From assembly GCA_036172245.1 (NCBI GenBank), contig JAYWIR010000033.1, forward strand, positions 310,001 through 374,000: DNA of 64,000 nucleotides, read 5' to 3'. The translations under genes and the position numbers were made by a program. Source of the DNA: Raillietiella orientalis (Eukaryota). Position 1 is the first letter of the stretch; the number at the start of each line of letters is the position of its first letter. Under the pieces are notes generated by a model, which saw only the letters and a list, made by a program, of their open reading frames with translations, was not told the DNA's origin and searched no databases. Of this stretch, positions 3,981 through 64,000 are shown piece after piece.

Positions 3981-6423
3981 CGTCGCTGATGCGTGAGACG
4001 GGAGATGTTCCCGCTTCTTTCCGCTCAGTAAAGGTGCGGTTCCTGCCAAAAGGAGTGGATTTGCGCCATCTCAGCAACTGGCGTCCGATCACCTTGGTGA
4101 ATTCGGACTCAAGTTGTTCTTGAAGCTAAGGTTCGCGTGGCTGGGGAGAATCGCGGAGTTCTTGGTAAGACGGAAGCAGACGTATGTTGTTCCGGGGCGG
4201 TCCATGGACGCAAATCTCTTCTTCGCGCGAAGATGTTTCGAGTTGCAGCAGCGCGTGGCGCAGCAGAGCCAGGCAGCCGAAGGCGCCGCTGCCAAGGGCA
4301 AGCGGCGGTGCTCGAGGCACGATGGAATGCGAGGTGCCTTAGTGGTCGCCGTCGATCTCTTCAAAGCGTTCGACAGCGTGAACCTGGACCTCCTTCTGGA
4401 GCTTCTGTGACGCCTAGGCCTCTTGACACCCCTCATCGCCTATTTCGCTCCTGCCGACACCACGCGTTATGCTGTATCTTTTTCAGAGGGCGCTACGTGT
4501 ACGGCGTTCCCATACGGCGGGGTATCAGGCAGGGAGACAACTTAAGACTCCTGCTCTTCAGCATCTTCTTTGAGTTGTTAATAAGGGCGTACACGCTGAC
4601 GCTGGCCAAACTGCATAGCTCTTGTCCAGGAACGCTGTCCCTGGCGGCCTATGCTGACGATCTGCTTCTCTTTTTACATATGACCACCCTGGCGTCCAGT
4701 CTGAAGGATTTTTTTGAGCTGATTCTCCGGGGAGCGGGCATGAGCGTCAACAGGATGAAATCAACCGTTGTACCGGTTGGCTATACGTGGGAGCGGCAGT
4801 CCGACTGGATGCGCCTGGGAATCCGCACGGAAAGGTGCTTTAAGTACCTTCGGGTTCCCTTGGACGCCTCCTGTCCAGAAGAAGCGTGGTAGCACTGCCT
4901 TCACAAGGCCGATACTGCTCAGGTCCCGTTCCAAGGTGGCAGGTTCCTCCTGTCGAAACGGGCCTTCGTGTGGAACATTTTCGTGGTCCTCCTACTCTGT
5001 CCATTCTTTTTTGTTTATCCGCCTTCCTTCTCGGCTAGGCGTCGAAGGTTACGCCTGTAGCGAAAAGCCTTGTTGGGACTGTCAAAGTCCAGGATTCGCC
5101 TCAACGACTTGGCGGCTTCTCGGCGGGATGCAGGATTGGGCATTCCGACGCTGGAGCGGATGGGACTGCTGGAGCAGTTGAGCATGCTGGCACTTTGCAG
5201 CCAGCTATGGACTCTCCCTGGTGTGCTCCAGCGCGTCTTCTGCTGCGGCGCTCCACAGGCGGCGAAGGACTGCGTTCGTTGCAACTGCGCACGGAGCGCA
5301 TCCAGAGAGGATTCGGCTTGCCTCTGAAGGTGCTCTCCTCGCTTCTGGAAAAGCATGCATGGATATCCTGCCGGCCGACGATATTCAACGCCTGGAGGCA
5401 GGGAGCCTTATCGTCCTGGGCTGCGGAACAGGATGTGTCCCGTTTGGAACTCCGTTGCATGAACCTTGCCCCATACTGTCCAGTGGGTGAGGTGTTGGAA
5501 GACCAGGACCAGTGGACACGCCTAGCCTCTATGCTCCTCGCCGAAGCACTGTCTGCATTGATGGTGCGAGACGACAGTGACCTTCCGGTAAGGTGGGTGT
5601 TTGCCTGCAAAATCGCAGGCGAAATCCGACTGTTGGGCGGCTGGAGCACTTGCAAGATGGTAGACGCTGCCACATTTCGCCTCCTTGCCAATGGACTTCT
5701 CCGGTTAAGTAAGCTCCTCGGGGTGCCCACCAATGAACTTGTGGTCCCTTCTGCGTGCTTAGAAGCGAGTGTCCTCCCCTTTCGGTGGAAACAGGACGCT
5801 TCTCTGCTGGTGCATTGGGGTTTGTACTGCAACTAACGCGCGCACCTGGTTTCCTGGGGAATTGTGTCCCCGACCTGTGCTACATGCGAAGTGGTGGAAT
5901 CGTTTCCGCATTTGCTATTAAATGCGGTGCTTTCTAGAAACTGTGGCGAAGGCTGCCTTCAGCGCTTTTGCACCTTGGACACACTGCAATGGATTGGATG
6001 CGCCTCTTCTTCACTCGTAGCGGTCTTTCTCCGGGAGCAATCGTCGCAATCATCTGCTGCGTCCGCGCGAATGTCAGAACCCGCCACATATTGTAGGTGC
6101 GAGCGGTATAAGCATCGGTCCCCGACACTGCAGCCTCCATCCTGCAAATGGTTGCCAGGTGGTCAGACCTTGGAGCAGAAGTGAGGGCGGAGATTGCTGG
6201 CATTCACTGCCGGTTCTGAGAATAGAAACGGCTAGACTGAAGACCCCTATCCCATCTTTCCATTTTATTTATTTATTTATTGTCCTCTCCCTTCCGTTCC
6301 TAAGTTTCAGTTTACCCGGTCTGCGTGCCGGGAACCCTGCTCTCCATCTTTCGTTCCCCTTGCCTAGGAACAAAGTTCCCTGATTATTTTATTGATAGAA
6401 GTCCCGGCGCAACCGGGTAATAA
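3980..6423 (+). mobile_element. LINE subfamily X, copy 1: RT to 3' end, multiple stops and frameshifts
   Basis: LPKG..NWRP, QTYVVPGRS, AVDLFKAFDSVN, GIRQGD, AAYADDLL and CATCEVVESFPHLL motifs. 3' hairpin at 6401-6418. Confidence 0.9.
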
Positions 6424-7949: not shown

Positions 7950-10365
7950 CCGGCATATGCGGGTGTAAACGGAGAGGCTTAGTGCCGCGACAAGCTCGCC
8001 GGCAGCGAGGATGCGGCCTCCGAGTAGGCTGTAGAGGAGCTCGCGGCAACCCTCGTCGACAGCGAGGACACATTCTTCGAGGAGGCGGCGAAGGAGCTTG
8101 CAGCATCGCTTGGCGAGCGTCAGAACGCCTCGCGGAACGAGGTGCGTAGGCCGGCATCGGCAAAAGTGGCACCCGCAGGTAAGTCTGATCTGAAAGGCCG
8201 GAAGTTCGTTCTTCTTCGCAAAGGCACCTTCGCGGAAATCACTATGGGAGTTCGAGAAGCCGAGGAGGCGCATTCAAGCTCCGAGCGACGGAAATGAAAT
8301 GGAAGCCGTGGACATGTACGCCAGCGTGGGATCCCAAGACATTAATCTCTTGCCCGCGAAAGCCGGCGAGCAGGCGATTTCCATGAGGGCAAACGTGCAA
8401 GGGAGAGAAGTACCCCTGCATGAGTCGAGTTGAACAGCTTGAAGCCATGGAGGTGGGCGTACAGGTTGGCGAAACACCACCTCCGTGCTAGGAGCCGGAG
8501 ACGTCCGCACGTATGGAGGAGGGTAAGCAGATGGCGAAAAGCCACCCTTTTCTAGAGTCCCGCCCCATCAGGTGACGGGAGCTACATCGCCAGGTTCCTA
8601 GGCATAAATTCTTGACTCGCCTGTCCCCGTCGGATCCGCGTGGCTTGTTGGAAAGTCAACGGGCTGCGCAACGATGGCAAGAGACTGCACACAGCCGTCA
8701 CAGTGCGTGACTTTGCCCTGGCGCTCCACCTGCAGGAGATCCACGAGATCACCGTAGCAGACTCCCAGGAGTTCGAAGCTATCGCGAAGGATCGTTTGTA
8801 CTACCGATGCGACTCCCGGAACAACTGTGAGATGGTGTTCTTCGTCGAGCCAGCCGTCGACGCTGCCGTAAAGGGCGTGCGCTTTGATGACGACAGTCAG
8901 GTCGGCCAACTGACTCACTCATGGTCCGACTGGATCGACCACATCGTCACAAACGCTCCCAGAGTCAGGCGGAGTTGCAGTGATCCGAATGTGTTGCAGA
9001 AAACCTCAGACTGGCCGGTGGACACAGACGTGCAGAAGACCCATCTGATAATAGGGGATTTCAATGTCCGCTCTCGAGGATTCCTTTGGGATCGTGAATT
9101 GAGACGATGTGAGACTAGCCTGCAGCTGAACGGAACGAAGTTGTTCATCCTTTTTGTTGACTGCACGTGGGCTGGGTGGCCGGACTGAATCCGATTGGGG
9201 ATCCTTACGAAGAAAGCTTCAATTATGTTGAGATTTCGTTAATGGAGTTGTGTACACCAGGAGCCTGATCCGACCGTCTTCAAAAGTCATCGCTGTCAAT
9301 CGATTCGTTGCACGGAGGCAGGTTTCAATTGCAGGAACGGGTGGTGGGTTTAATCGCGTTTCCGGCTATCTACTTTTGCTCCCTGCTTTTGTTTGCCCAC
9401 CCCTTACTTCATGATAAGGAGAGCAGCTATATTTCTGTGGACAGTCCCGTGAGGCAAAGGGAGTTCCCGCGTGCAGTTAAAAGACTTGCGTGCTCCACGA
9501 GGAAACGTAAGAATTGGCCTTCTCAATTTCGAGCCCTAGAAGCTTCAGCTCCGATTTCGGACTCTCGCTCTTGTTCGGAGTTATTGGACACGCCTTGGTG
9601 CGCCAAAGCAAGGCACTTATCGCAACGAGCCTCAGGATCCGTAAGACTTTCGCGTTTCTGGAGAAGCGCTGCGGCAGGCTTACCCAATGGGGACCGCAGC
9701 TGCATCGAATGGAAGTTGCGTCTCAAGAGAACGCATGAATCTTCGATCTTACCGGAAACTACTCCGCATGGCTATAGTAGTCAGTCTTCACGTGAGAAAA
9801 GATCCACGTCTCGAGCGATACAAGAAACAGTTGCCTGAGGAGGCACGCTCGCTAGACGCTGCAGTAATTCGTGCAATCCCGAAACAAGCTTCTGTGGAAG
9901 CAGGTTATCCTTCATGTTCCAGTGCTGCCATATTTGGTGTACTTTAAATACAGTAACAAGCAGTGAACTTGGAAAGTGTCCAGCTTCAAGGACGCCACCG
10001 ATACTGGCGCGAGCATCTCGGCAGTTAGCGGAAACTGCGACCCCGTGTGTCCCGCTCTATGGACTTTTACGTTGGAACGAGCTACTCGCATGACCTCCGG
10101 AGGAGATGAAGTGAAGTCACAGGAGATGATGTTACTCGTTTTGCACTGGAGACTACCTTGCAAAGTGCGCCTCACCCACTGGATTCATGGAAATGAGGAT
10201 GCCCTTCCTGCACGGTTAGGATACGAGGGACCTTTCCCCACTTTCTTGTGAACTGCATCGCTTTCTTTTCCCTCTGGGATGGCTTTGCTACTATCCTGAA
10301 CATAGGCGGAGGAACACCCAGGGACATTTTATGGCGACGTTCCTGATGTGGCTTCGTGCCCCGTT
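7950..10365 (+). mobile_element. Old LINE: ORF1 C-terminus, then endonuclease fused by internal deletion to the RT thumb and C-terminus
   Basis: DSEDTFFEEAAKELAASL resembles 25950..26372. ORF 8640..9188 has ACWKVNGLRND, LQEIH and IGDFNV, then jumps to post-YADD sequence. Confidence 0.75.
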
Positions 10366-13300
10366 GCAAATCATCATTAAAACCTGATACATGGAATTTC
10401 GCGGCTTTCAATTACATGGCGAATATTTCAGAATTTCAGATGACTTGATTGCCCCTATGATTAGAGTAAACTTCTTTACCGATCAATTGAGTTAAAGAGA
10501 GCACCACTTTTATACATCAGAGTAAAAACGAAATACATTTTCAATTCCACTATAATGCTCTCTAGTGTGTGATGAGCTCTTCTTTGAGGAAGCAGCTTAA
10601 TGATTGATCATTACGTCTGCGTGGAGTTATGCTTCAGAAACATCGACTTCTCTAATGAGACTTTTTCAGGCGGAACCCTTATCTCTGAGTAATTGGCTCC
10701 TAATGTCTTCGGTTCCGACCAAGATTCGGTCACTTTACAGTAGGCATCCTTTTGTTCATGACTACTGTAGACGCGTGGGCAGAACAATGGTATCTCTACA
10801 AAAAGTAAGGGTTCGATTTCTTATTATTCTATCATCACTAGAATTCTTATGACGCCTTGAGGAAGCCAATTTCAAAAATTGCTAATTGCACTAGAAAAAT
10901 TGAAGCATTTTTCTTGCAAACGAATATTTTAAAGGATGTGATTTTGTCTGTGTTTTCCTGGTAAAATGATGAGGTCATTAAACCGTCACCTTGCACGACG
11001 AATAATGACTTTCATTCATTAGCACGCTACAAAAAGCAAGTAGACATGAATCTTAGCAGTATATTTATTTTCAGTCCATTTCTTCACTACAAGCCAAAAA
11101 ACATGGAAGGCTGTTTTCGCTACTCATGACGAGAATTTTAGCGGTGCTCACCAGTTTTCAAAAAATCCAAAATGCAAATGGAATCTTTTCCAAACGTGCA
11201 ATCCACTTGCAATGGCGTTGGAACCACGAGGATCAGTTTTTCTTTCGAGTAACTGAAAGATTGTGTTTAAGAAAAAAGGTTTTCTTGCGATTGCAAAGTG
11301 GTTGCGCGCTTTCAATGTTGCTCACATTTCTGAAGACTCATTGGATCACTCTTGTGGGAAGGTTGCCCAAACCTGCTCATAGGTGTGCGCATTTTGGACG
11401 CGAAGTACTAAGGTTATGACCAGAAAACTGACAATTTCGAGAGACTAAGTAAGGTACCGCCGGGAAATTAAAAAATCTCAAAAAGTTCGATTGGTTTCCG
11501 AGTTTTGATGTTAGATGATGCAACTGCGCCCTAACGTCGGAACCGAGCGTGTTGCTTTCATGCCTTATCAATTTGCGGCAGATGCTTGTATCCAGGCTGG
11601 CGACTATGTCGTCATGGAAGCAGCAGAAAAAGCGGAAGTTTAAAGAGTAAGTGGATATTCAAATCATAAGGAAACACGGATGCGTGATTCATGCAAGAAA
11701 GAAGCTGGTGCTGGAATGCTTAATTACGTAGGTGTCTTACTTGATTTGAGGTGACACTGTGCAATTACATGGTCCTTTCAGCAAGGTAGCATAGATTGTT
11801 ACATTCAGAGGAGATCCGTATGAAGACTGAGAGAAACGATGTAATCTTACTGCATGTGCGCTGCTTTCTTACCGTCACCGCCACTGAACAAGACTGCTCT
11901 TCAGGTGTAGGCAACTTATCCGAACTCCATGATACATCGCACTGTGCCAATGAAGATGCCGTCACAAGGGTGAATGAACACGGTCCTCTGGGATTCACAA
12001 ACTTGATTTCGTTAATAACATGTCGTGACATCAATAGATTCCTCTCAGCGTTGTTTATTTCAAGGCAGAGAACTGCCATTACCATCAGCAGCCACTGAAT
12101 CGTGAAATTTGTCAAAATGAAAACCTTTTACTATGTTGCGAAAGGCGAGCAGTGATCCAGATTGGAGGCTGGGAAAGTCAATCACTATTCTCGCCTCGAT
12201 CTCAAATGCACGTGGAAACTCTCGAAAGAAAGGAGCAGAAAGCCCACTGCACAACGTGTTTGCTTCGATACTTCCCGTATTTCAAATAACGCGCGTTGTA
12301 TCTTCACCGTTTATAGCGTTTTGATCCTCAGTATGCAAGGATGAGTTTGATTTTTTAAGCTTCGAAGATTTTGTTTTTCGTTCGAAGCAGCCTTGACAGT
12401 AATAGATTTCATTCAAATACTATCTTTGCTCGCATCCCATGCTCCTGAATATCTATCACAGTACGAATGTGTGTCCGACGATGGTGATATAAGGTAAAAC
12501 TCCGCGCGCGGTCAGCGCGTGCCTAACAGTTGCGCAAAATGATGAGAGGTACGAAACCGCAGAATGGGGCGGCATTTTGCAATACATCTTCGCCTTTAAA
12601 TTCAGAAATACGAAACTGCCATTTCTACGTTAGCATAGGGAAGGCGAATTTTCGTAGATCGCAGAAGGGAGCGTTTCGCATGAGAGTAGGTCCTGGCGTG
12701 CATTTGTTGGTTTACATTCGGTGCTTCGCGAACGTTCACCATCGAAACTCCCTTCCCGCTTAACAGTTTGTCTGCATAATCATCTGACATTTCCTCCATG
12801 ATAACTTTATTAACACTTGAGAATTTGAAAGAAGTTAACCCCATACGCACATTTGGAAGCATCATTATGCGGAAATTCCTCGGCACTTCCTCTTGTTATG
12901 TACTGCAGCCTTCGTAGCAAAAAGGAGAACGCACTCAGGTACTAGTAGAATTGAAGTTCCTTTCTTAGAATGTGGTGCGGAGTCAGTCAATTTATAGTTG
13001 CTCGAGGCAGCACAACAGGCGAACCCCTTGCATAATTACCACATTATGGTTTTCGTCAAAACGTAAACACAGCATTTACATGCATGCCAGCAGATTTCTC
13101 AGAATCTTTTTTTCTTCAGGATCGAAGAGAAAATTTGCAAATTCTCTTTATGAACTGCGTACTCTTTTCATGCTTGTGAGCGCATATGCATGTGTGGTCC
13201 GCTGCATCATTTCTCCCTCATTTTCGCGGAGAGCAGTAGCAAATGCAAGGCTGTCGCGAAAAGTGGAATAACAAATGGGCAAACTCTTTTCTGGAACAGA

Positions 13301-14040
13301 AAGAAAGGTTTGACTGCAAGAACGGATGTTGCAAGCATCCTTCTGTGCGCTTCGTCCACTTTTCTCCCTCTAAATTTTTTGGGCTCACTTTTTTCGCTGA
13401 AACGAAGTTGTGAACGGAGAGAGGCACATCGGGTAAGCCGTTGATTACTACTGGTACTATTAGGATATGAAAAGTTTGATTGCGGAAATACTGCGTGCTA
13501 ATGAAAAGTGAGTTCGATGCAGGGAGAAGGAAAAAGGGTTCAAAGATGAAAACAAGCCTAGGTGTGATAAATAAAAGCGTAAAGATATGGTACGCTGCTT
13601 AGATATTTGCTCAAGGTCTTTCCCTGAAGATTATCATAGGGATGCTTCCATGCTAAACGAAGAAGTAAACCAGGTAAAACCTTGGTATCATTCTGGCACT
13701 TGAGCAGCGAGGGAAGCATAAAGGTGACACTGCGTTCGAAAAATATGCTTCGTTGCTTCGAGGATTAGGAACATTCCTATGATTGCGTTTATACAACTAC
13801 TGTGGTTATGCTTTCCTCCGAGCTGATTTAGCTGCATAAAAAAATTTTTTCTTCAGAGCTAAGCAAAACCACAAATAAATCTTCGAGAATGATATTGTGA
13901 ATTTATTGATGATCAAAATGAATGATAATGTATCGCATCAGATGGCGCGGTGTTGTGGACAGTGAATGGAATGGTTTTTTCGAGAGCAACCTTAGAAAGA
14001 GTCTCTTCCTTGTTCGCTAATTCAATCGTTTATCCGAAAA
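8880..14040. repeat. Inverted segmental duplication, copy 1 (partner ~36410-41370)
   Basis: Colinear reverse-complement similarity throughout, e.g. 11390-11525 vs 39000-39135. Both copies share the same EN-to-thumb deletion junction (GDFNVRSRGFL / KDFNVHAQGFL). Confidence 0.9.
11737..12143 (-). CDS. Putative small secreted Cys-rich protein, 3 exons (12143-12132, 12094-11873, 11826-11737); exon-1 ATG absent in this copy
   Basis: GT-AG introns of 37 nt (12131-12095) and 46 nt (11872-11827) at identical positions in the paralog. Spliced product: WLLMVMAVLCLEINNAERN...GPCSF...QCDVSW...SCSVAVT/SSYGSPLNVTIYATLLKGPCNCTVSPQIK*. Hydrophobic N-terminus; 5 mature Cys conserved with the paralog. Confidence 0.7.
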
Positions 14041-14041
14041 C

Positions 14042-14090
14042 TTAATCATCCCGGCAAGAGCGCAGAGAAAACACGTCCGCACGTCTCCCG
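14042..14090 (-). promoter_or_regulatory. Isolated LINE 5'-end stub with GGACGTGTTTT motif
   Basis: Minus strand GTGCGGACGTGTTTTCTC matches the 5' ends at 19335, 43647 and 62219. Confidence 0.5.
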
Positions 14091-16799: not shown

Positions 16800-17128
16800 C
16801 GTGATGTGTCTCAGGAATTCGCGATGTTCCTTCGCACCTGAGAGTCGTTTTCAGACCCCCGGCAGACGTCACTCTTCGGATGGCGGTCCCTTGTCACGCA
16901 GGCAAATCTCGAGAAGAGGCTAGAAATGGTCTGACAGCTTTGTCTCAATTTTCCCTCGTTTGCCGACCCGTGAACAGAGGTCAACGTTGAGGAAGACGTG
17001 ATCGACGCTGTGGTCTATTCCCTCTGCGCCTTCGAAGAAGTTGCGCGCGCATGGCGGTGCACAACTCGTTCTTCGTGTACTCCTCGGTTTTTGGTTCCTT
17101 TGAGAGCAGGATGAGATTAAGGATTATC
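16800..17128 (+). mobile_element. Probable LINE ORF1 remnant
   Basis: VNVEEDVIDAVVYSLCAFEEVARAWR resembles IEPKISDRDVVSVLAKFGKVHALWR of 58722..59087. Confidence 0.4.
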
Positions 17129-19323
17129 ACCCGGTCACGTCTGGACGTTTATTTTTAATAAACCGGTAGGCAACAATGTACCCAACCAACAAACCGACAG
17201 CAAACAGAGAGAAATTACCGGCACGCAGGCCTGGTAAACAAACCGCTCGCAACACAGGAGGAGTAAAGGAATAACAACACAAAAATACAAAAACTGGAGG
17301 GAAGGGTAATGAGTCTGTGGTGAGGCTCCGTACTCACGGGGATTCAAACGAGAAACACCTGGAATGTTACGAAGCCTATGAGGACGCAGGTGGAAAAAGA
17401 AAATACAAAAATGAGTTCATTGAGGGTAGGGCAATGATCACGGGTTGGCCGCTGCTGAGCGTGTGCAAACTGGCGGTGTATTTCGGAGAGATCCCTTGTT
17501 GACTCCTCTGTCAAATAAGGCCATCAGGCAGCTACTTCCAGATAGGAGCATGCTTTGCCGATTACTTCTCGGTGTTGCCCGTTGATTACTAACGCCTGGC
17601 GGACTGAAACTATCGCGCGTATGCAAGCGATGGTTGCAATCCTTGCGCTTAGGGACAGCCCGCTCGGCGTGAAGAATCGTCGCAGCAAGTCTCTTGCGGT
17701 TTCCACGGGATGCATTAGTGCTGTTACCAGCCTACGCCACGGTCCTTGTAGGACACCGCTGTCCAGAAGTAGGTGCAATATCGACTCCGTCGACCCGCAC
17801 CGAAAGCAGTTGTCAGATGGATGTCCCCCTGAGTCTCGATGCCAACGCTCGTTACACTGAAAACCCCAGTGAACGAAAAGCAGCACGGCTTGTTTCCAAG
17901 CAAGGGAATGCAGCGAACTGTCAACACTGTGAAGGGACTACAAGTTCTACGGGGATGACACCAAGTTCTTCTGCCCACCGGAGGAGTCCCTTTGCAGTAG
18001 AACAAGAAATGGCGGCGTCCGCCAACTCACTCGTCTTCCATGCGCCAAGGAGTTTCGTTATTTTTGCTATCGTGCACGTTACCTCCCACCTCGCCGGTTG
18101 AAAACTGTCGTTTCTTACCCTGAGGGCAGACAGCAATGCGGCGAGAGACTTGGCAGCCAGGGTAGAAAACTGCACCTGGTCCTGCAGTACATCTTCAAAA
18201 GATCGCAAAAGAGGATCGCGCAGGGAGCGAAAATCTTCAGGGCGGATTCCTTGGAACACCGCCCAGGATTCGACAGACTCCTGCCGCCAAGATTCGAAGT
18301 TCATTGGGCGGCATAAGATCCACGGACGGGCTTCCAGAAGTGTGGTCAACTGCCGCAATGGAAACTTAAAACCTCGCTTCCTGTATTAGGTGTTCGGCAA
18401 AAGCAAGAGCAGTCCTCTGCTGCCGGCGCATCTCTCCAGAAGAAAGTGTGCAGGCACACACAAAAGGGATGTCCATAGCTGAGCACACAATGCCAGCACC
18501 CGGAACTGCACCTTTAGTTTGATTCGCTCCAAAGTCAGGATGCCCAAACTAGCATCCCGACGTGGAGTTGCCAAATTTTTCAGGAGGATCCTGGATCTCT
18601 TTGGTCCCTAGAGGGCGTTTCTGAGCTAAAGTTTAGCCCGCTCTTTCGCCGCTTAAGGGAATTTCAAAACAATGAACAGGGAACGCAGGAGGGGAGCCAC
18701 AAATGTATTCCAAATAGCTGCCCGTTCATGCAAGGGAAAGTTGCCATCAAGGAACGGGCTAGCGGACAACTCTGCTTTTCGAAGACAGTCCGTCGACGTT
18801 TCGACAGCGCCGATAGCGCATAACGGAACAACCAGGTACTTAAATTTCCGACATGTGTGATTCCCCAGTCGGATCCAATCGGACTACCCTCCCACGACAC
18901 ACCCACAGGAACGACCACGCTTTTTTCTCTGTTGACGTTCACGCCCACTCCCCGACGAATCAGGTCGAAGAAATCTTCGACACTGTACGCTGGGATGGAC
19001 ATGGGGAGCAGAAGAAGCAGGTTATCAGCGTAGGCGGCCACGGCAAGCGTTCCCGGGCAGGAGCTTGGCAATTCAGATAGCGTCAGCCTGTATGCTCTCA
19101 GCACCAATTCAAAGACGACGCTAAAGAGTAACGGTGTTAGGCTATCACCTTGCCGAATGCCCCTACGCAACGAGATACCGTACACGCGGCAGACGCTGGA
19201 AGTAATATAGGTTAGCGCGTGGCTCCAGCCAGCGCGCAAGTAAATAAGGAGATGCGCCGGAAATCCAAGGCATTCCAAAAGCTCCAAAAGAAGCCACTGG
19301 TTTACGCAGTGAAACGTCTTGCG
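17129..19323 (-). mobile_element. LINE Z, 3' half (RT from the KAFD motif to the 3' end)
   Basis: ORF 18664..19287 has GIRQGDSLTPLLF and AAYADNLL; CFRCGSTESILHLLLD zinc finger. Terminal motif at 17153-17129. Confidence 0.85.
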
Positions 19324-19417
19324 TGCTCCAGGGTGGACGTGTTTTCTCGGTGCTTTTTTTGCCAGGAAGTCCCCCCTAGTGCTAGCGTCGTGTGGTTTGG
19401 TGGTCGATCAGGCAGCG

Positions 19418-20551
19418 ATGCCTGACGCGACCACCAGGGATGGCCAGGGGGCAGCGGAAACGCCGCCTTCAGAGGCGATGGAGAGCAAGGGGGCGGCGGC
19501 AACTTCGCTTCCAGAGGCGATGGAGGTAGGGGCATCCTCCCCCACAGAATCGGTCTTCGCTGCAGCGCGGGCGTGGAGTGCCGTTGTGTTGGCGCCATCG
19601 CCTGCAGCCGCGGCGGAATTGTCGGCCTATGTAAAGAAGGGGTACAACCCCTCATTGTTCTACAAGGTAGGCAATCTCTATTCTTTAGAGAGCGCGCGCG
19701 CCTTTTCGAAGGGCATGCGCGCTCTCGATGTGAAAGAGGAGGAGCTCAGCGCTATGACCATCCGCAGCGGGAGTCAGTACGTTAAGGTCATCTGCAAACA
19801 TGCAAAGCTTGCCCAACGACTGCTTAAAACTTCCGTTGTGATGGAGACGCGTAGGCTACTCCTTACGGCAGACCGCAGCATGGTGGTCCACCTGTTAGGC
19901 GTAACCGCGCGGATGCGCAAGGAACAGGTTTGCGCCGCGTTGGAGGAATACGGAACGGTCCAGATGCAGTGGACGAAAGTTAGTACCTTCGAGGACTACA
20001 CAAGGCTGCAACACGGCCTCACGGCTGCGCGCGTGACCGTTCGGGAGGGCTGCACTCTCCCCCACAAACTGGTGGTCGAAGGCGAAACCGTCGACCTCTG
20101 GTATGTGGGGAAGCCGAAATCCTGTGGCTTCTGCAATACGTCGGGCCACCTCAAAAAGAGGTGTCCCAATGTGCAGTGCCAAGTATGCGGAACCATGAGA
20201 CACACGAGGGAGGTGTGCCCTAAAGCAGCAGTGCGGGTGGTTTCCAAGAGAAACCTTAAAAAACATGCCCGGCTTCTGCAGAAAAACCTGGCAGCGAAAG
20301 CTGCCGCGAAGGCTGTGCCACCCGCGCCCAAGGCCCAGGCCGCACCCGAGACCCCGGCGAACAACGCCGAACAAGTCAAGGGAACTAGGCGGAAGCCTGG
20401 GTGGCAGGTGGCTACGGCCAAAAAATCAAAGAAGGAGAGGAGGATTGAGAAAAAGCTCGCGTACCGCCAGAAAAATGAGCAGGCAAGCGAGCAAATTAAA
20501 GAATGCAGCGTTCTCGTTTATTACCCGGTTGCGACGGGACGTTTATTATAA
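19418..20551 (+). CDS. LINE ORF1 gag-like nucleic-acid-binding protein, open but truncated by the X insertion
   Basis: ATG MPDATT at 19418. Two knuckles CGFCNTSGHLKKRC and CQVCGTMRHTREVC, then a basic tail. Confidence 0.85.
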   Translation: MPDATTRDGQGAAETPPSEAMESKGAAATSLPEAMEVGASSPTESVFAAARAWSAVVLAPSPAAAAELSAYVKKGYNPSLFYKVGNLYSLESARAFSKGMRALDVKEEELSAMTIRSGSQYVKVICKHAKLAQRLLKTSVVMETRRLLLTADRSMVVHLLGVTARMRKEQVCAALEEYGTVQMQWTKVSTFEDYTRLQHGLTAARVTVREGCTLPHKLVVEGETVDLWYVGKPKSCGFCNTSGHLKKRCPNVQCQVCGTMRHTREVCPKAAVRVVSKRNLKKHARLLQKNLAAKAAAKAVPPAPKAQAAPETPANNAEQVKGTRRKPGWQVATAKKSKKERRIEKKLAYRQKNEQASEQIKECSVLVYYPVATGRLL

Positions 20552-22100
20552 TGTCAACTGGGAACTGTGTTCCCAGGCAAGGGGAACAGAAAATGGGGAG
20601 TAGATTTCCCGGAACGCAGTCCGGGCACACTGAGAGTTCGGAACGGGAGGGGGTGGAACAATAAATAAATAAATTGGTTGGGAGGGCAAGGACAGGGGTG
20701 AACAGTCTAACCGTTCCTATTCTCAGAACCGGCGGTGAATGCCGCCGATCTCCATCCTCACTTCTGCTCCAAGATGTGGCCAGCCGGCAGCCATTTGCAG
20801 GTTGCAGGCTGCGGTGTCGGGGACCGATGTTGGGACTCCTCGCATCTGCAATACGTGGCGGGCCCTGGCAATGGCGCGGACGCAGCAGATGATTGCCACG
20901 ACCGCTCCAAGAGAAAGTCCGCCACGCGTATAGAAGCGGCGCATCCAATCTAGTGAGGTGTGTTCGGGGTACAGGAGCGCTGAAGACAGCCGCTGCCACA
21001 GCTCCTGGAGGGCACCGCACTCAAACAGGAAATGCGGAAGCGATTCCACCGCTCCGCATTTGGCACAGTTCGGGGACGCAATTCCCCGGAAATCAGGTGC
21101 GCCCGCTGGTTGCAGTACAAACCCAAATGCACCAGCAGAAAAGCGTCCTGCTTCCACCGAAGGGAAAAGAGAGTGGCGTCCAAACATGCAGAAGGGACCA
21201 CGAGTTTATCGGTGGGCACCCGGAGGAGCTCACTCCACCGGAGAAGCCCCATTGCAAGAATGCGAGGTGTGGTAGCGTCTGCGACTTCGCAAGTCCGCCA
21301 GCCGCCCAGCAGTCGGGATTCGCCTGCGATTTCGCAAGTGATCTCCCACCTCGCCGGCAGGTCACTGACATCTCGCACCATCAGTGCACACAGTGCTTCG
21401 GCGAGTGGCGTAGCGGCTGGTCGTGTTCACTGGTCCTGGTCTTCCAGTACCTCCCCCACTGGACAGTATGGGGAAAGTTTTACGCAACGGAGTTCCAAAC
21501 GGGACACATCCTGTTGCGCTGCCGAGGACGATAAGGCTTCCGTCCTCCAGGCGTTGAAGTTCGTCGTCCGGCAGGAGATCCACTCATGCTTTCCCAGAAA
21601 GGTGGCGAGCTGGTTCAAAGGGAAGCCGAATCCTCTCTGGGCGCGCTCCGTGCTCGGATGCAACGAACGTAGTCCGTCGCCACCCGTGCTGCGCCGCAGC
21701 AGCAGCCGCGCTGGAGCACACCAGGGAGTAGTCCAGAGCTGCGCACAAAGTGCCAGCATGCGGAACTGCACTGGCAGTCCGATCCGCTCCAGCGTCAGGA
21801 TGCCCAATCCTGCATCCCGCCGAGGAGCCGCCAAGTCCTTCAGGCGTATCCTGGACTTCGCTGTTCCCCACAGGGCGTTACGCAACAGGCGTTGTGCCCG
21901 GCGCTTAGCCGAGTAGGGAGGGAGACAAACAAAAAAGAGGGGACGGAGGAGGGGGGCAACGAAAATGTTCCACACGAAGGCCCGTTCCGACAGGAGAAAC
22001 CTGCCGCCTTGGAACGGGCCCAGAGCAGTCTCGGCCTTGTGAAGGCAGTCCGACCACGCTTCTGATGGACAAAAGGCGCCCAAGGGAACGCCGAGGTGCA
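20518..22100 (-). mobile_element. LINE X, copy 2 (thumb to 3' end)
   Basis: HLGVPLG, CAKCGAVESLPHFLFEC and IGGIHRRF* motifs. Terminal motif at 20547-20523. Confidence 0.9.
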
Positions 22101-23351
22101 CCTGTTGGTGCGTCCCGGCACGTCTTCTTCTCCAGCAAACCACCGAGAAGACGGGACTGACGTCGTTTCTTGCACTCCGTCGCCGCGTCAACCGATGCGG
22201 ACTGCAGCTACAGAGGGTGGCTGCGCTGTACCGAAAAAACCCACGATTGGTAACCTGTCGCCCTTTGAACTGTAGTGCCTGGTTGCAGGAAACCGTTCGA
22301 ACGTGGGGACAGTTCGGCATGGAACGCTCCCAACAGGAACGAAGGTTCCTGTTTGGGGGTTACAGAAGTTGCACGCTATGCCAGATCCTGGAGGATCCAA
22401 AGAAGAGAGCGTGGGCAGGAAGAACCCCCCTCGCTGCTGCGCTGCCCTCCCTGATGGAAGTTCTGGACAGCGATGTTGCGGCGAAGTGGGAGGTTACAGT
22501 AAGAATCCCCGGAAAGAAGAAGAAGATAGGAGAGTGGAAGACGGGTCAGCTGACTGACGCTGCCACCCCGAGTACGCCTTCCCATGGACTTCTTCGCTGG
22601 GGCGTGCTGCTCGACGTTCCCATTGGACGTTTGAAGTGGTCCCCGGTTGTAATGAACAGCTCCACCCTCCCCTTAAAATGGCAGGAGTCGGCTCTCCTGT
22701 TGCAGAACTGGGGAGTCACCTGCAGCGCCAGCGGGCACCACTGGACCTGGGGAGCGGTGGACCCCAATTGCGTCAGGTGAGGGGAACGGGAGTCCTTCCC
22801 CCACCTGCTAGTGGATTGTGTTGCCCTTCGGCCCCTCTAGCTTCGCTTTTTCGCGGCCATCGGAATCCCTTGCGGCAACCCCAGGCACGCACTGAAAGCC
22901 CTATTTGTTGCCGACGCCCTTCGGCCAGCGGCCTCGTTAGCAGCTTTGTGCTACCTACGCGGGATCTTCACCGCTTGGAGCAAGGCTATGGGAGGACAGC
23001 ACGACCAGGGTGCCATCCAGCCAGCCTCCCAGTTCCTGAGGAGAGCGTCGCGATGGCCCCACCTGGATCCAAGCATGCAGCAAGAGCTTACCGGCATCCT
23101 GCAAAGGATGCAACGGTCCCACCAGCTACAGTGATTCCTTCCCGTACCCTCCCAGTTTTTTCTTTTCTTTTTGTTTTGTTTTTTTGTTTTTCCCCTTTTC
23201 CCTTGCTGCCGTGGTGGAACGTACCGGTCTTCGAACCGGTGACCCGGCAGGCTCTGTGTTTCTTCGTGCGTGGCTGCAGCAATGGTCCAGTAACTGAACG
23301 TCTTTGTAAATGTTTATTCAACAGTAAACGCCCCGGCGAAATCCGGGTGAA

Positions 23352-25760
23352 AATCGAACTTCTTGCGGAGGTCGACTGCGACCGTCAAGGCACCTAACGT
23401 TCCATGCTACCTCCGGCGCCTGTTCTTGCCTTGTTCTTCTTGTTCTTCCAGACAGGCTTTGCTGTTCCACATCTTTCTGCAGCTGCATCCAGGTACGCGC
23501 GAAAAGGATGTTCGCCTCCATGGATCGTTCGGGATCCGCGTAGGTCTGTTCCGGGCTCACCACAGATTCCGCAATACTTTCTAACCGCGCGACTCAAGAC
23601 GTCCGAGTTCACCAAGGTGATCGGACGCCAGCTGTCAAGTCAGCGCAAGTCTCCGCCTTTCGGCAGGAGACGCACCTTCGCTGGGCGGAAGGAATCCGGG
23701 ATATTCCCGGATTCACTCATCAGCATCGCGACTCTGAGCATCAAGAGGATGAGCTCCACTGCAGAGCAATGATAAAACTCGGCAGGGAGCTCATCCTCGC
23801 CTGACGCCTTTTGTCTCTTGAGCCCAGCGATGGCGGACGAGAATTCATCCGCCGTGAAGGGCTCGTTGAGACATTCGCGTAACTCCTCGCCGACGACAGG
23901 AGCATCCTGCGATAGGAGCATCTTAAAGAGAATATTTTTCGTCAAGGATTCAGCGTACAGCGAGGAGTAGTAGCGTCTCACAATGCGGAGTCCTTCGGCT
24001 GGAGCCAAAGATTCCTGACCCTTGTCGTCCAACAGGCATGCTGGTCTGGACTGCCAGACCTGGCGCTCAGCCTTCACCTTGTACTCTGCGAGACGCATGA
24101 CATTCGCTTTGTCTAAACAACGTGCGTGCCTGCAGAAAGTCTCTGCTGTTGGCCACGCCTTCTCCGAAACCGCGTAGAAGCCGGTGCAAGGGGAATTGGC
24201 AGCAGAAATCGCGGACAGATCTTTTGAGATCGTCCAAGTTCGCGAGTTATTGAATGGCGAAGCCTCGGAGTTGTTCACGGAGATGTTCCGCAGCCTCCGA
24301 CTGGCTAAGCCAATCCACCTTCATTTCCTAGTTTTACAACGAAGGCCCCTTGACTGGCGGAAGGAGCTCAAACTCCATCCTGTAGTGATCAGAAAGCTCG
24401 GTCAACCATCTTCCTGTCCTACCCACACGCGAATGCTGGTTTTCATCGAGAAAGACGTGATCAAGCGATCTTTTTATTTTAGGTTCCCTGACCATCAAGT
24501 GGGAGGCGTGCACCGACGCGCACATTTCGATGGGCAGCACTTGCTTTCTGGGGCGGCTCCAATCGTCGGACAGAAGTTGGACGTTGAAGTGCCCCGCGAC
24601 GGAATGAGCCACTTGGGGGCCGGAGTTGTTGAACCAGTGGCTCTGCACATCACCAAAGAAAGCTACTCTTTCTTCGAGGTAGCGAGAGCCACTCGGCGCG
24701 TAGACGTTCGTAACGACGAGATCGATGGACTCGGACCACTTGATGACAAGCTGGCCTATCCGTCCGTCGTCATCAAAACGAACACTACGCTCCGCTTCCG
24801 CCATTTTTCCTCTTACGAGGAACGCGACGCCGCACGTGTGTGCGCCGCCGCACCGCCAATGTAGCGTTCCGCCTGCGCGCTCCTCGATTTCGACTGCCTG
24901 CTCGTCGGAGATTAGGTGAATCTCCTGCAGGAGCGCGAGGTCGAAGGGGCGCAGGGCGTTGGCTACTAATCGCCTCTTCTCGTCGTTCTGTAGTCCGTTC
25001 ACGTTCCAATACGTTACAGACAGACGACGAGAAGACGCGATTAACCGCATTACTGCTGGGAAGGTGGCGGCTGTTTGCTCGCTTTATCCGGCGAGCAGAC
25101 GGCGAGCAGCACCACTGGCTGGAGGGGACGGTCGCCACCGTGCTCTGTCGTGCTGCATGCATGTAATGCCTCCACGCCAGGCTTAACCCCGTCGGGTTTC
25201 GTGGAGACTTCGCGGGGCTTCGCGGCTAGCGTTACCTGGCTGCCTACTTTTGATCGGCGCGCACACGCTTTTGAACGAATTGTCCTCGTCTCGGTGATCG
25301 GAACGGCATCCATTTCAGAGTCCGACCGGCGCATGTTCGATCGGGTTTCGGCCTTCCGCGAAGTAGTGACAGGTTCTGCTGAATAGACAGCTGTCCTGTT
25401 GTCATTTTCCGTCACCCGAGCATCGCTTTTGGTGACGGCTGCTTTCCCGGCGCGCGCGTTTTCAGCGTGCTCACGCGCAGTTGCACGAGGGACCTTTGCT
25501 GAAGTCTTCTTTACTTCATTACGGTTCCTCACTTCGCGTATCGCCGTAAATGGAGATTGTGCTCCATTGCCATCTTTGAAGCCATCCGCGTCTTTGGACG
25601 TGAGCACTTCCGATGGCTCCTACACGCTCGTCATGGGCGCTGCCTACGGAGATTTCGGACTGGATGTCGAAAATCTCCGCCACGAATGAGTCGTCCATGG
25701 CAGCCGGGAAGACCTTCTGGCCACGGATCGACAACGGGGTGCGAAACAAGCGTTGGACAT
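23352..25760 (-). mobile_element. LINE Z, 5' half (deleted ORF1, endonuclease, linker, RT up to AVDLRK.FD)
   Basis: ORFs 25050..25607, 24334..25050, 23640..24278 (LNEPFTADEFSSAI, LLPKGGDLR) and 23318..23563. Confidence 0.88.
24334..25050 (-). CDS. Apurinic-type (APE) endonuclease domain of LINE ORF2, open for 238 aa
   Basis: YWNVNGL, LLQEIH, NVYAPSG, AGHFNV (GDFN altered), LDHVF and SDHY motifs in the expected order. Confidence 0.9.
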   Translation of the reverse strand: MRLIASSRRLSVTYWNVNGLQNDEKRRLVANALRPFDLALLQEIHLISDEQAVEIEERAGGTLHWRCGGAHTCGVAFLVRGKMAEAERSVRFDDDGRIGQLVIKWSESIDLVVTNVYAPSGSRYLEERVAFFGDVQSHWFNNSGPQVAHSVAGHFNVQLLSDDWSRPRKQVLPIEMCASVHASHLMVREPKIKRSLDHVFLDENQHSRVGRTGRWLTELSDHYRMEFELLPPVKGPSL

Positions 25761-35008: not shown

Positions 35009-38000
35009 ACCAGGGTTGTAAGTGCGATCCTTCCCGTCCTGGGGGATTTCTTCCCAAGCGTGAGAGGAACGAATGCCGAACCCTTCCTGGATTCATATGG
35101 CAGACCTCCATCCCTAACAGCCCCCTATCCTGAACAATTACACTGGAGAATTACACGCCTCCTTGCGGGTTGCCGCGGGCGGAGAGTCATGAAAACAAAA
35201 CAGTGTGTTTATTGTTTGGAAAGCACCACATGCGCTGCGAGGCACGCGACTGGCTCTCAGGTACTCAGCAAACTAAAAAAAAAAAACAGAAAACTCTTAA
35301 AGAAACAAAGCTGAGAGAAAAAGAGCCTAGAGAAGAAAAAAGAAGAACTCAAGGATTTCCATCGTCCTCGGCCAATAGTAACGATCTCCTCGTGGAGGTC
35401 GCTGCTATCCTTTAAATAAAAAGAAAAAAGGTGTCCAATTCTTTTAAACCACCAAGATGTCGCATTTGCCGTAGAGCAGTTTTTTCTTTAAGAGTCTCTA
35501 AATAAACATGAAAATAATTAATTGCATTTTTGCAGCACACATGGAACTTTATCTCGCTGGAGCAAATTTTGCTTTTTTGTCAGTGGAGATGCAGAGGTGT
35601 CGCGTGTTATGTCGTGGAAAGCTGAACAAATTTTTTCCATAATGCGGAACTCCAAAATCCTTGAAAGAAGTTGGAAAACAATTTAGGACTATTAAGATAT
35701 CATTGATGCATGCAATGGATTGCATATTCATTAGTCCCGGTTGCCATAGAGGGTGAATGTTCTTCTCGATTATAGGTACTACAAAGGTCCAGCAAAGGCT
35801 CCGATAGAGAATTGACAAATGGTTAATGCTGCTGTAAGAGAAGACACCCATGTTTTGCCTTTCTTGACATCCAGTATTGCTGCATACTTAAGAATCGCGA
35901 CAAGAGAATTCAGACTTCGCATTCCGCAAATGTCGTTTGCCCCATGTATGATCCTTCCTGCTAGAGAGGCTGCATGGGATCTATGGCAGCAGAAATAAAA
36001 GCTTCTTCTTGTAATAGCCTTTTCCCATCTGTTTAGCAATTTGGAAGCAGAACAAGAAATGTGCAAGCGCTAGTGCTCAAAAAGATCAGTTATTCCTCCT
36101 CTCTGCATATAAATGAAACAGAACAAATTTCAATCTGTGCTTAAATCCCTCAGTACGCCTGATAAGACACGCAGGAAGTTCTCTTGGAAATCCAAAAAAT
36201 CACGTGTTTTTCATTTCTGGAACTTTCTTCCATGCGAGGCAATGCTGCTTAGCTGTTTTACCGGGCAAACGCTCTCTGAAGATTTTAAATAGCATGTTTA
36301 TTCAGGTTAAGATTCTCCTTCATTTGTGGATTTGTAGAGTAAATTTGTACGTTAGTATGAAGATTTCATGGCTGCGACCTTTCCTACACTGCCATCCACT
36401 GCGCTTAATGAGATTTTGCATAAAAGATCGAGTGAGCGAACAAGGTGAAGAATCTTGCTGAAGTTAATCACGAGAAAATCATTTCACTTACTGTCGAAAA
36501 CCCCGCCGAATCCAGATGGAACACTCGCTACATTATCAAGAATTTTCGACATCTCTAAGTCCAGAATATCATTCTCAGATATTTATTTGTGGTTCTTCTT
36601 AGCTCTAAGTAGGATAGAGGATTTTCACATTATTTTCGTTCTTATCATTTTTGTCCTTCCCGATTTTTACACAAAAGCAGCTAAAGCAGCTCGGAAGGAA
36701 GCATGACCAAAGCAGTTGCTTGTATGAACGCAATCATAAGATCGTTTTTGCCCTGCACTTATCCTCCAAGCAAACAAGTATACTTTTCAAACGTAGTATC
36801 ACCTTCATACGTTTCTGTCTGCTCAAGTGGGGAATGACACCTTGGTTTTGCCTATTTCCTACTTCCTTGGTATGGAAGCATTTCAATTATAATCCCTAGC
36901 GCAACTTCTTGATTAAATGTCAAAGCTTTAAGCTCTCACTTATGACGCCTAGGCTTGTTTTAACCTCTAAATTTAGTTTTCTCTTCCCTGCATCGAACTC
37001 ACTTCGCATGAGTACACACTATTTCCGCAATCCCACTTTTCATATCTTAATAGTACCAGTAGTGATCAACGGCTTTCCCTGTATGCCTCTCTCTGTTCTC
37101 AACTTCGTTTCAGTGGATAAAGTGAGACTAGGAATTTTAAAGGGAGAAAAGTGGACGAAGCTCACAGAAGGATGCTCGCAACATCCGCTCTTGCAGTCAA
37201 ACCTTTCTTTCTGTTTCAGAAAAGAGTTCACCCATTTGTTATTCGAACTTTTGCGGAAGCTACGGATTGGCTGGTGCTTACTGCGAACATGAGGGAGGAA
37301 TGATGCGGCGGACCACACATGCATGAGAGCTCACAACCAAGAGAAAAGTATGCACCTCATAAAAAGGTATCTCGAGTTTTCCCTTCGATCATGAGAAAAA
37401 AAAAATCTGAGAAATCTGCTAGCACGCATGGAGATGATGTGTCTGTGTTTTGACAAGTACCATATTGTGGAAATTACGCAAGGGGTTTGCCTGTTGTGCT
37501 CCCTCGACCAACTATTTACTGATCAACTCCGCACCACATTTTAAGAAACGAACTTCAATTCTTCTAATAACTGAGTGAATTCTTCTTTTTGCTTTGAATG
37601 CTTCAGTAACAACAAGAGGAATTCAAGAAGAATTTCAGCATAATGTTGCTTACAAATGTGCGTATGGTTCTAACTTTGAAATTCTCAAGTCTTAATGAAG
37701 TTATCATAAAGGAAATGCCTGATGATTATTCAGACAAACTGTTGGGCAGGTAGGGAGTTTGGATGTTGAACGTTGCGAAACACTGAATGCAAATCAACAT
37801 ACCGCAACTTGAGAAATGCATGCCGGGGTCTACGCTCATGCGAAACGCTCCCTTTCGCTATTAACGAAAAATCGAGCTATCTATGTTAACGAAGAAATGA
37901 AAGTTCCGTGTTTTAGAGTTAAAAGGCGAAGATGTTTTGAAAAATGCCGCTCCATTCTGAGGTTTCGTACCTCCCATCGATGGGTGCAACTGTAAGGCAC

Positions 38001-38373
38001 ACACTAAACGCGTCCGAGGTTTTACCTTATATCACCATCGTAGGAAACACACTGGTACTGTGATAGATTTTCAGGAGCATGGGATGAGAGCAAAGAAAGT
38101 ATTTGAATGAAATCTCTCACTGTCAAGACTGCTTTGAACGAAAAACAAAATCTTCAAAGCTTGAAAAATCAAACTCATCCTTGTATACTGAGGATCAAAA
38201 CGCCATTAACGGTGAAGATACAACACGCGTTATCTGAAATACGGAAGAAATTAAAACAAGGCGTAGTAAATTGGGCTCTTTTGCTATGTCGGAGCACAAC
38301 TCCTTACTTTAGACAGGTTTCATGTGCATTTTAGATCGAGGCGAGAAGGGAGATTGACTTTTTTAAGCCCGCC

Positions 38374-38781
38374 ATGAACAACATGGTTGAAGGTTTTCGT
38401 TTCGACAAATTTCATGTTTCAGTGGCTGCTGATGTTCGTGACAGTTGTAAGCCTCGAAGTGAACAGCGCCGAGCGCAATGCTTTGCAGTTCCGACAGACT
38501 TATGGCGACATCAAGTTTGAGAATTCCAAAGGAAAGTGCTCTTCTATTCTTGTGACGCCACCTCCTGAGGAACCATGAGAACCGTGCTCGGTAGCATGGA
38601 CTGCGAATCAGCTTTTTACACCTCAGAAGGAAACTTGTTCAGTGGTGGTGACGGTAAGGAGGAAGTGCACATGCAGTAAGATTAAATCGTTTTTCTTAGA
38701 CTTTTTTCGACCTTGCGGTGAATGTTTGCTAACTTCGTAAAAGGACCTTGTCAATGCTCAGTTTCACCGAATATCGAGTAA
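38374..38781 (+). pseudogene. Paralog of the small secreted Cys-rich gene, disabled (exons 38374-38385, 38423-38653, 38700-38781)
   Basis: MNNM/WLLMFVTVVSLEVNSAERN...KGPCQCSVSPNIE*. Introns 38386-38422 and 38654-38699. A 9-nt insertion brings TGA at 38576 and exon 3 is 8 nt shorter (frameshift). Confidence 0.75.
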
Positions 38782-40154
38782 GACACCTTCCTAATTAAGC
38801 TACCAAGCACCAGCTTCCCTTTCGCATGAATAACGCATCCGTGTTTCCTTATGATTTGGACATGCCCTTATCCTTTGCACTTGCGCTTTTCCCCCTGCTG
38901 CGCTCTGCATGATGACATAGTCGCCAGCAGGGTTACAACCATCTGCAGCAAATTGATTAGGCATGAAAGCTATGCTCTCGGTTGCAACGTGAGGTCGTAG
39001 TTGCATCATCTAACATCAAAACTCGGAATTAATCGAACTTTTTGAGATTTTTTAATTTCCCAGCGGTACCGTACTTAGTCTCTCGAAATTGTCAGTTTTC
39101 TGGGCAAAACCCTAGTACTTCGCGTCCAAAATGTGCACACCTATGAGAAGGTTTGGGCAATCTTCCCACAAGAAGGATCCAACGAGTCTTTAGAAATGTG
39201 ATCAACATCAGAAGTGCGCAGCCAATTTTGAATCGCAAGGAGATCTTTTTCTTAAATACAATCTTTCATTGAGGGAGAAAGTACACTGGCCGCCGTGCTA
39301 AAAACGGCATTTAATGTGAATTGCACGTTTGGAAAATATTCCGTATGCCTTTTGGAATTTCTGAAAACTAGTGAGATCCAAGAGAACTCTCACCATCTGT
39401 AGCGGAAGTAGCCTTTCCTGCGTATTCGCTAGTAGTGAAGAATTAAAGTGAAAATATATATACTGCTAGGATTCTTATTCACTTCCTGCTTGTGCTGTGC
39501 TGATGAATGAAGCAGTCATTAATCGCTCTGGAAGATGACAATTTAACGATTACTCATCCTTCTGCCACTAAGATACAGTAAAAATCGGAACCTTTGGAAT
39601 ATTCGTTTACAAAAGAAAGAATTCAATTTTTCCAGTGCAATTACCAATTTCTGAATTCGCAACACAAAGGCGATATGAAAATTCAAGTGTTGCTGGAATA
39701 GTATGAAATCCAACCCTTTCTTTTCATAAAGACATCACTGCTTTCCAAACGCGACTACGATAGTGTTTACCCAAGGGATGCCTACAGTAAAGTGATCGAA
39801 TCTTAGTAAGTCACTGGAAAAGTTAGGTGCCACCTAAGCAAAGATAAGGGTTTCGCCTAAAGAAGTCTCTTACAGAAGTCGATGTTTCTAAAGCATAAGC
39901 GTTGCGCACGCAATGATCAATCATCAAACGGCTCCCTCAAAAAAGAGCTTATAACACACTAAAAAGTATTATAGTGGAATTGAAAATGTATTTCGTTGTG
40001 ACACTTGTGTATGAATGCGATCCGCTTTTGAACTCAATTGACCGTTGAATAAGTTTACTCGATTTATTAGGGCAATCAATTCCTCAGAAATTCTAAAAGA
40101 TTCGCTGTGTGATGGAAAGCCGCGAAATTTCATGTATCAGATTTCATGTTTTGG

Positions 40155-63403: not shown

Positions 63404-64000
63404 TTATTACCCGGTTGCGCCGAAACGTTCATTAAAATATCAACTGAGAACTGTGTTCCCAGGCAAGGGGAACAGAAAATGGGGAGTAGATTTCCCGGAA
63501 CGCAGTCCGGACACACTGAGAGTTCGGAACGGGAGGGGGTAGGACAATAAATAAATAAACTGGGTGGGGGGGTGGGGACAGGGGTATATCGTCTAATTGT
63601 TCCTATTCTCAGAACCGGCGGTGAATGCCGCCGATCTCCATCCTCACTTCTGCTCCAAGATGTGGCCACCCGGCAGCCATTTGCAGGTTGCAGGCTGCGG
63701 TGTCGGGGACCGATGTTAAGACTGCTCGCATATGCAATACGTTGCGGGCCCTGACAATGGCGCGGACGCAGCAGATGATTGCGACGACCGCTCCAAGAGA
63801 AAGTCCGACACGCGTGTAGAAGCGGCTCATCCAATCCAGTGCGGTGTGTCCAGGGTGCAGGAGCGCTGAAGACAGCCGCTGCCACAGCTCCTGGAGGGCA
63901 CCGCACCAAAACAGCAAATGCGGAAGCGATTCCACCGCTCCGCATTTGGCACAGTTCGGGGACGCTACTCCCCCGGAAATCAGGTGCGCCCGCTGGTTGC
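63404..64000 (-). mobile_element. LINE X, copy 3 (3' end; continues beyond the window)
   Basis: Close match to 20518-21112; IGGIHRRF*; terminal motif 63433-63409. Confidence 0.9.

Follow-up and report, generated by a model that had tools for sequence, protein, structure and literature searches.

A stretch of 64,000 nucleotides from the 210-Mb genome of Raillietiella orientalis (assembly GCA_036172245.1, contig JAYWIR010000033.1, here C33, positions 310001-374000; hereafter the window) is a heap of nested fragments of long interspersed nuclear elements (LINEs), among which one element, here called Y, interrupts the reverse transcriptase (RT) gene of another, host Z, within the codons of the conserved KAFD motif. 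Y is an autonomous LINE of the L1 group. From motif searches and junction comparisons across the genome, we consider it probable that Y has made many separate insertions, antisense and at a single base, into the KAFD RT codons of related LINEs. It would do so by target-primed reverse transcription from a G/TCGA nick, and target sequence copied at the 5′ end of its RNA would seal the full-length copies.

Insertion of Y into the RT gene of host Z

The first-pass annotation of the window had read host Z as one RT gene split by Y, with a decayed 16-bp target-site duplication (TSD) at the borders. These two 16-mers and the third one quoted (62192-62207) are indeed present at their coordinates, and 19308-19323 agrees with 23352-23367 at 12/16 positions (binomial chance at a fixed place ~6 × 10−5). 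A duplication does exist, but its length is 14 bp and not 16 (19310-19323 and 23354-23367, both + strand, 11/14; defined by 14-mer comparison and by the empty copies described below), its left copy being decayed and the two extra right-side bases being part of the GAAAA tail of Y. Host Z, on the minus strand, reads ...GALTVAVDLRKKF until the right 14-mer; on the other side of Y, it continues from the left 14-mer as RKTFHCVNQWLLLELL. Its upstream ORF2 (second open reading frame) half (23368-25050, −) contains the APE endonuclease (Exo_endo_phos, E 3 × 10−9) and the RT as far as DLRK, and is 85-87% identical to empty copies. The downstream half (17124-19323, −; 3′ end at 17124 by the tblastn map) contains the RT from KAFD, the CCHC region and the 3′ end; it is 82-84% identical to uninterrupted copies over 17.9-19.3 kb, and its RVT_1 match (E 6 × 10−5) is under the curated cut-off. 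The split itself was confirmed with 19 other host Z copies, fetched as the best matches to a query taken upstream of the site. All 19 are continuous across it, that is, empty with a single site copy; they match the window flanks at 85-87% on the right and 82-84% on the left, and the two matches overlap by the 14-mer. Since all of them match both flanks with one site copy, the two RT halves in the window belong to one split element.

The interrupting segment (19324-23353) is a deleted Y rather than an intact one, in which Y nucleotides 2-1194 and 4313-5567 are separated by 1.6 kb from the 3′ end of a LINE X lying antisense; this region is 8.7 kb shorter than that of a second Y copy. The first part (19324-20517, +), comprising the 5′ untranslated region (UTR) and ORF1 (ATG at 19418, CCHC zinc knuckles), has an open frame and 89% identity to the intact copy at locus L066, with no Pfam hit for ORF1, and is cut by X at Y nucleotide ~1194. 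The X part (20518-22094, −; X 3′ end at 20518) is joined through a deletion with a 3-bp overlap to the Y 3′ part (22095-23353, +; 90% to L066), which ends in CCGGGTG-AAAA.

The second copy of Y (head and ORF1 at 62208-63403, +) is preceded by its own target 14-mer (62194-62207, +; 14-mer comparison) and lies in a second host LINE (downstream half at 60309-62207, −; RVT_1 E 4 × 10−7), which forms a separate cluster, is 67-69% identical to Z copies and belongs to another family. As had been proposed, the flanking RT here represents a different subfamily, with a different C-terminus, and the high identity between the two regions ends at the junction without being carried into the RT flank: the Y part (19324-20517) is 86.8% identical in the two copies and the RT flank (18500-19309) 59.1%, with a step at 19324 from 58% to 91% in neighbouring 100-bp bins. 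Copy 2 is in turn interrupted by the 3′ end of a LINE X (63404-64000, −), an insert that reaches ~70,594 when the window numbering is extended; from ~70,595 the sequence is again Y, as far as ~74,973, and the identities of this copy to L066 are 92.5% and 93.3%. Its right end has a 14-mer matching the left one at 10/14, followed by a 77%-identical Y-like head. The far end of copy 2 therefore has the Y 3′ end and TSD-like 14-mer anticipated by the first-pass annotation, but a tandem Y-like head follows in place of the anticipated upstream RT.

Target specificity across the genome

The counts given here come from searches with Y motifs only, since an earlier search that included the RT flank was biased. 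A 33-nucleotide 5′ motif gave 141 matches for Y 5′ ends (heads), and 90 of the 100 matches listed were fetched, chosen without regard to their flanks; for the 3′ ends (tails) there were 178 matches, the first 30 of which were classified. In all, 76/90 heads lie antisense at one base in the RT codons for (D)L[RH]KAFD (71 assigned by script and five by eye), and another 13 directly follow a Y tail in tandem. The one atypical head (L129) has its 14-mer next to RT sequence ~260 nucleotides further on. The 71 script-classified heads represent 16 host clusters at 80% identity, or 67 at 98%. Among the tails, 22 are at the site or in tandem, seven are in non-LINE DNA and one is unassigned. Target preference has been defined, in the passage cited, by more than 20% of flanks falling in one sequence type (PMC4494074), a proportion that Y exceeds both in its heads (76/90) and in its tails (22/30).

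All seven off-target copies are truncations of 0.4-1.1 kb with ~14-bp duplications at TCG(A), which is preceded by G or C; the sites have little else in common. No head was found in non-LINE DNA (0/90, Fisher 7 × 10−6 against 8/30). The idea that hosts cannot easily mutate this target away, also put forward in the first-pass annotation, is not demonstrated, because the shared TCG(A) core spans the Phe and Asp codons and would be altered by a synonymous TTC-to-TTT change or by CpG decay. Y is rare in the RT of its own family (L106, L146), and several positions of its own KAFD site, some of them synonymous, depart from the 14-mer that it prefers. The own family accounts for 1/71 script-classified heads with 173 empty-site matches and family Z for 6/71 heads with 100 matches, the patterns being of unequal stringency; self-avoidance by Y is only a hint.

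The Y islands form several separate clusters per contig on C5, C26 and C33. At three loci (L146:4301, L152:4056 and L144:3214), reverse-complement Y-like heads adjoin truncated Y bodies; that in L146 is at Y's own KAFD site and the other two are elsewhere. Near-identical nested blocks at C11:4.62-4.64 Mb and C13:2.46-2.48 Mb (L050-L055, L071, L072) represent either a segmental duplication or an assembly haplotype copy.

The left 14-mer and the 5′ junction

A pure duplication should show the host allele on both sides of the insertion. The right 14-mers are largely of the host allele; the left ones often carry an allele of Y's own, and the bases upstream of them follow the host. The TCGACC allele occurs in 14/90 heads, in 0/35 tail junctions and in none of the 100 empty sites listed. 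The base with which Y starts also shows linkage to the end of the 14-mer (GCG|T 42, GCG|C 0, GTG|T 8 and GTG|C 37; p 4 × 10−17), and GCG is present in 42/90 left copies versus 6/35 right copies (p 0.002) and in 6/100 of the empty sites listed. L068 is a clean case, in which both flanks are 94% identical to one host, the right 14-mer is the host allele and the left one is that of Y. Because the left 14-mer is so often Y's allele and not the host's, these junctions suggest that the Y RNA has target sequence at its start, which anneals at the 5′ junction much as proposed for R2.

It is also conceivable, though in our view unlikely, that the targeting of Y is as set out above and its left 14-mer just an ordinary TSD, with Y subfamilies preferring different host alleles and later conversion between heads having homogenised them. 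One host family does have GCG on the right side (L065, L145, L146, L148), TCGACC is present in two empty sites, and the searches revealed neither a ribozyme nor a conserved fold by which the RNA start could be fixed at the 14-mer. However, the left and right alleles differ inside single insertions, and do so toward Y's allele (L068, L067); the excess of GCG on the left side also argues against a plain duplication, and conversion would need to stop at the edge of the 14-mer in many hosts.

As for features that might define the RNA start, a search for a ribozyme at the Y 5′ end gave no Rfam hit up to E 10, a result with which a divergent ribozyme is still compatible. Single folds allowed for a 5′ hairpin between the 14-mer and the UTR, but this was ruled out (fold z 0.1-0.4), and the 14-mers of 118 heads showed neither compensatory covariation nor consensus pairing.

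Independence of the insertions and alternative explanations

The proposal that the insertions are independent and sequence-specific is upheld by the 76 heads at the site together with the 13 in tandem, by host labels that are random on the Y tree, and by the existence of empty sites, for which pattern searches gave 100 and 267 matches. In a set of 57 heads, the median body identity is 93% whether the hosts are the same or different, and the flanks of different hosts are 68% identical. Host labels change 37 times on the tree of these heads versus 37.4 times when shuffled, a result weakened by the poor resolution of the tree (7/54 branches starred, three rows broken by other inserts).

This weakness is one of several points that weigh against our reading. 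The second host's upstream half ending at KAFD was not seen as far as position 102,000; its absence does not refute targeting, because the tandem arrangement found at copy 2 is common (13/90 heads). Among the 13 two-ended copies, L070 has flanks of different hosts and the left flank of L071 is unplaced, and the flanks of L067, although of the same family, match it unequally (93% right, 81-83% left over 300 bp). Since these flanks are discordant, unplaced or unequal, later recombination has shuffled some junctions. The 5′ motif search finds young, full-length heads only, six of the 30 tails fall into two triplets of near-duplicates (L050-52, L053-55), and the lack of full-length off-target copies could reflect selection. 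At the 5′ junction, TCGACC is found in two empty host sites on contig C3, heads with GCG|C (L005, L070) are present outside the unbiased set, and the left 14-mers of L126 and L252 are host-type. Finally, the genomic junctions fit endonuclease recognition of TCGA and RNA-primer pairing alike.

A simpler scheme would combine a short TCGA nick preference with a regional (chromatin) preference for LINE islands, KAFD being just an abundant source of TCGA and selection clearing long copies elsewhere. It agrees with the off-target sites, which share little beyond TCG(A) with a preceding G or C, and with the restriction of full-length copies to LINE DNA; the clusters of Zepp have likewise been explained by hotspots, in the passage cited (PMC3446292). 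We nevertheless give it little chance, as other TCGA words occur in LINE sequence (for example in Y ORF1), yet 89/90 heads are at this site or at a regenerated copy of it, in a single orientation throughout although TCGA is palindromic, and X and Z use other sites within the same islands. That the junction of one old insertion was multiplied through segmental duplication, or was transferred between host families by gene conversion or ectopic recombination, is highly improbable and largely refuted by the off-target duplications: the duplicated loci (L050-52, L053-55; four pairs at 98%) and the discordant L070 flanks speak for it, and junction spreading could also account for the element-linked left 14-mers, but the identity drop falls at the 14-mer itself with the bases upstream following the host, the hosts fall into 16 clusters whose labels are random on the Y tree, and 14-bp duplications at TCG(A) of their own accompany both the truncated copies at the site and those off-site.

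Anatomy of Y and a possible route of integration

Full-length Y is 5.57 kb long, with ORF1 and an ORF2 of APE-RT-CCHC organization; the ORF2 in L066 is intact (1189 amino acids). Nine two-ended copies, in which 5′ and 3′ motif hits could be paired, measure 5.50-5.57 kb, which rules out Y as a non-autonomous 4-kb unit or as a composite 12.8-kb unit. The nearest solved relative of Y ORF2 is human L1 ORF2p (E 5 × 10−45), over the APE, the RT and weakly the CCHC; R2 proteins match in the RT only (E 2 × 10−13, range 1 × 10−13 to 1 × 10−11). Further L1-group traits are the upstream ORF1 with zinc knuckles, the 14-bp duplications, the AAAA tail, the 5′-truncated copies and the lack of long terminal repeats (LTRs). 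The closest database proteins to Y ORF2 are 21-33% identical and mostly unnamed. In an RT tree with 22 mostly unnamed database RTs, a reference set without named Tx1 or Zepp sequences, the 15 RT rows of this genome group as a single clade (100/100), itself on a long branch. At 17124-17150, 20518-20545 and 23325-23353, the families share a 3′ end in which AATAAA is followed by a short GC hairpin (CCCGG...CCGGG) and, in place of a long poly(A), a family-specific tail of 4-5 nucleotides.

For targeted insertion of Y, the following route can be proposed. The predicted APE domain would nick the sense strand of the host after ...TTCGA, with a second cut in the opposite strand at a distance of 14 bp, and target-primed reverse transcription would start from the G/TCGA nick, where priming may be aided if the RNA reads a short way through its 3′ end into UCGA. 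If the transcript begins with the 14-mer, the end of its complementary DNA (cDNA) could pair with the 14-nucleotide overhang, and the heteroduplex at the 5′ junction would resolve to the host or to the Y allele. The site would be regenerated beside every copy, leading to tandem arrays.

Other LINE families with recurrent sites

Recurrent sites were also found for X and Z. The tails of X are antisense at Y ORF1 nucleotide ~1200 in 12/25 cases (L178-L202), including those at 20518 and 63404 of the window; most of its other sites begin with ACGA. Four Y host flanks are 93-94% identical to X, and targeting between X and Y is therefore reciprocal, X tails lying in Y ORF1 and Y host flanks matching the X RT. 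A tail motif was given to host family Z because of the family's decayed 3′ end in the window and because the motif lies 2.2 kb from empty sites. This motif lies in sense orientation at the APE GDFN codons of other LINEs in 17/25 cases (L153-L177; 17124 in the window), although 15 of these 17 are in one host family and may not be independent events; another 3/25 are in tandem, with a duplication of ~9 bp. The X and Z samples are small, but it is likely that the LINE islands were built by several mutually targeting families.

A broader picture, which we put forward tentatively and would at present rate slightly on the doubtful side, is a radiation of L1-type LINEs in which every family is addressed to a different place in the genes of its relatives (the RT KAFD codons for Y, Y ORF1 for X, APE GDFN for Z and further motifs for others). 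The families would disable each other reciprocally, the target site at the start of the Y RNA would license full-length integration through RNA-encoded homology, here in an APE-type element, and synonymous codons would partly shield Y itself.

Further families also have recurrent sites, in small numbers. The tails of one such family are antisense at the FPLHRLP.GFG linker after the APE in several hosts (30692 of the window, −; L032:9390, L066:9645, L018:250), others are antisense in the APE QEIH... region (47842 of the window, −; L069:3999, L078:490), and one (L076:5289) is at the RT NADAKLL codons. A family ending in ...CCGGGTGGCAA recurs before ACTTC (L031:5504, L082:5186, L133:9694, L070:886); three of its cases have one shared flank near ORF2 residue ~352, and one is at the APE DFN codons.

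Other features of the window

Outside the Y lineage, as judged from the ORF2 map, the window contains an inverted pair of 4-kb AT-rich repeats (10154-14042 and 36411-40370) that are 75% identical and have no long ORF. The segment 53040-57775 is distinct and more AT-rich, and contains a zinc-knuckle frame resembling ORF1 (53040-53663, −) as well as a distant RT (55374-56770, +) that is 32-40% identical to that of Y.

Discussion

Transposon-targeting LINEs of the Tx1 clade are known (PMC4640811), and in the passages cited they are described as animal elements (PMC4494074) that enter DNA transposons (Tx1L into Tx1D, Tx1-Mar into Mariner-N4_AMi, Tx1-9_AMi into Harbinger) or LTR retrotransposons (Tx1-8_Crp and Tx1-4_AMi) (PMC4494074, PMC1950540). 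As far as these descriptions go, Y resembles them in being an L1-group LINE of the APE type that enters another transposon with a sequence preference and some leakage elsewhere. Their targets are DNA or LTR transposons, whereas Y targets conserved RT motif codons in ~16 clusters of its own lineage, always antisense and with reciprocity. In its targeting habit, Y behaves like a Tx1 target-specific element.

The Zepp and ZeppL L1 LINEs of Coccomyxa and Chlamydomonas insert into their own copies, forming about one cluster per chromosome (PMC3446292, PMC8226300). They too are L1 LINEs that enter existing copies and give nested clusters and tandem arrays; unlike Zepp as described in those passages, Y is mostly found in other families, at a fixed codon and in several islands per contig. 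R2 RNA keeps upstream 28S target sequence, and its uniform 5′ junctions have been ascribed, in the passage cited, to annealing between cDNA and target (PMC3774820). A similar 5′ annealing of target sequence carried on the cDNA would apply to Y, but R2, so far as described there, has a restriction-like endonuclease, an rRNA target and a ribozyme like that of hepatitis delta virus, whereas Y has an APE, an RT-codon target and no ribozyme that we could find. Nested group II introns of Methanosarcina acetivorans are described as homing into other retroelements, with nested stacks and a perpetual target (PMC4424553). By that description they are prokaryotic ribozymes that home via reverse splicing, whereas Y is a LINE. 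The targets of these nested introns lie in RT-coding ORFs. Searches of the open-access literature revealed no LINE that targets the RT codons of other LINEs.

Taken together, Y adds a conserved RT motif of its own lineage to the known LINE targets, which comprise RNA genes, repeats, and DNA or LTR transposons. Being hit back by one of its hosts, it provides a natural case of conflict between retroelements, which could explain how nested LINE islands form. The closely related APE domains of these families, whose RTs are 62-75% identical but whose targets differ, offer a series for studying how the specificity of an L1-type endonuclease changes, and the 14-mer linked to Y is relevant to a poorly understood step of L1-group elements, the joining of the 5′ end.

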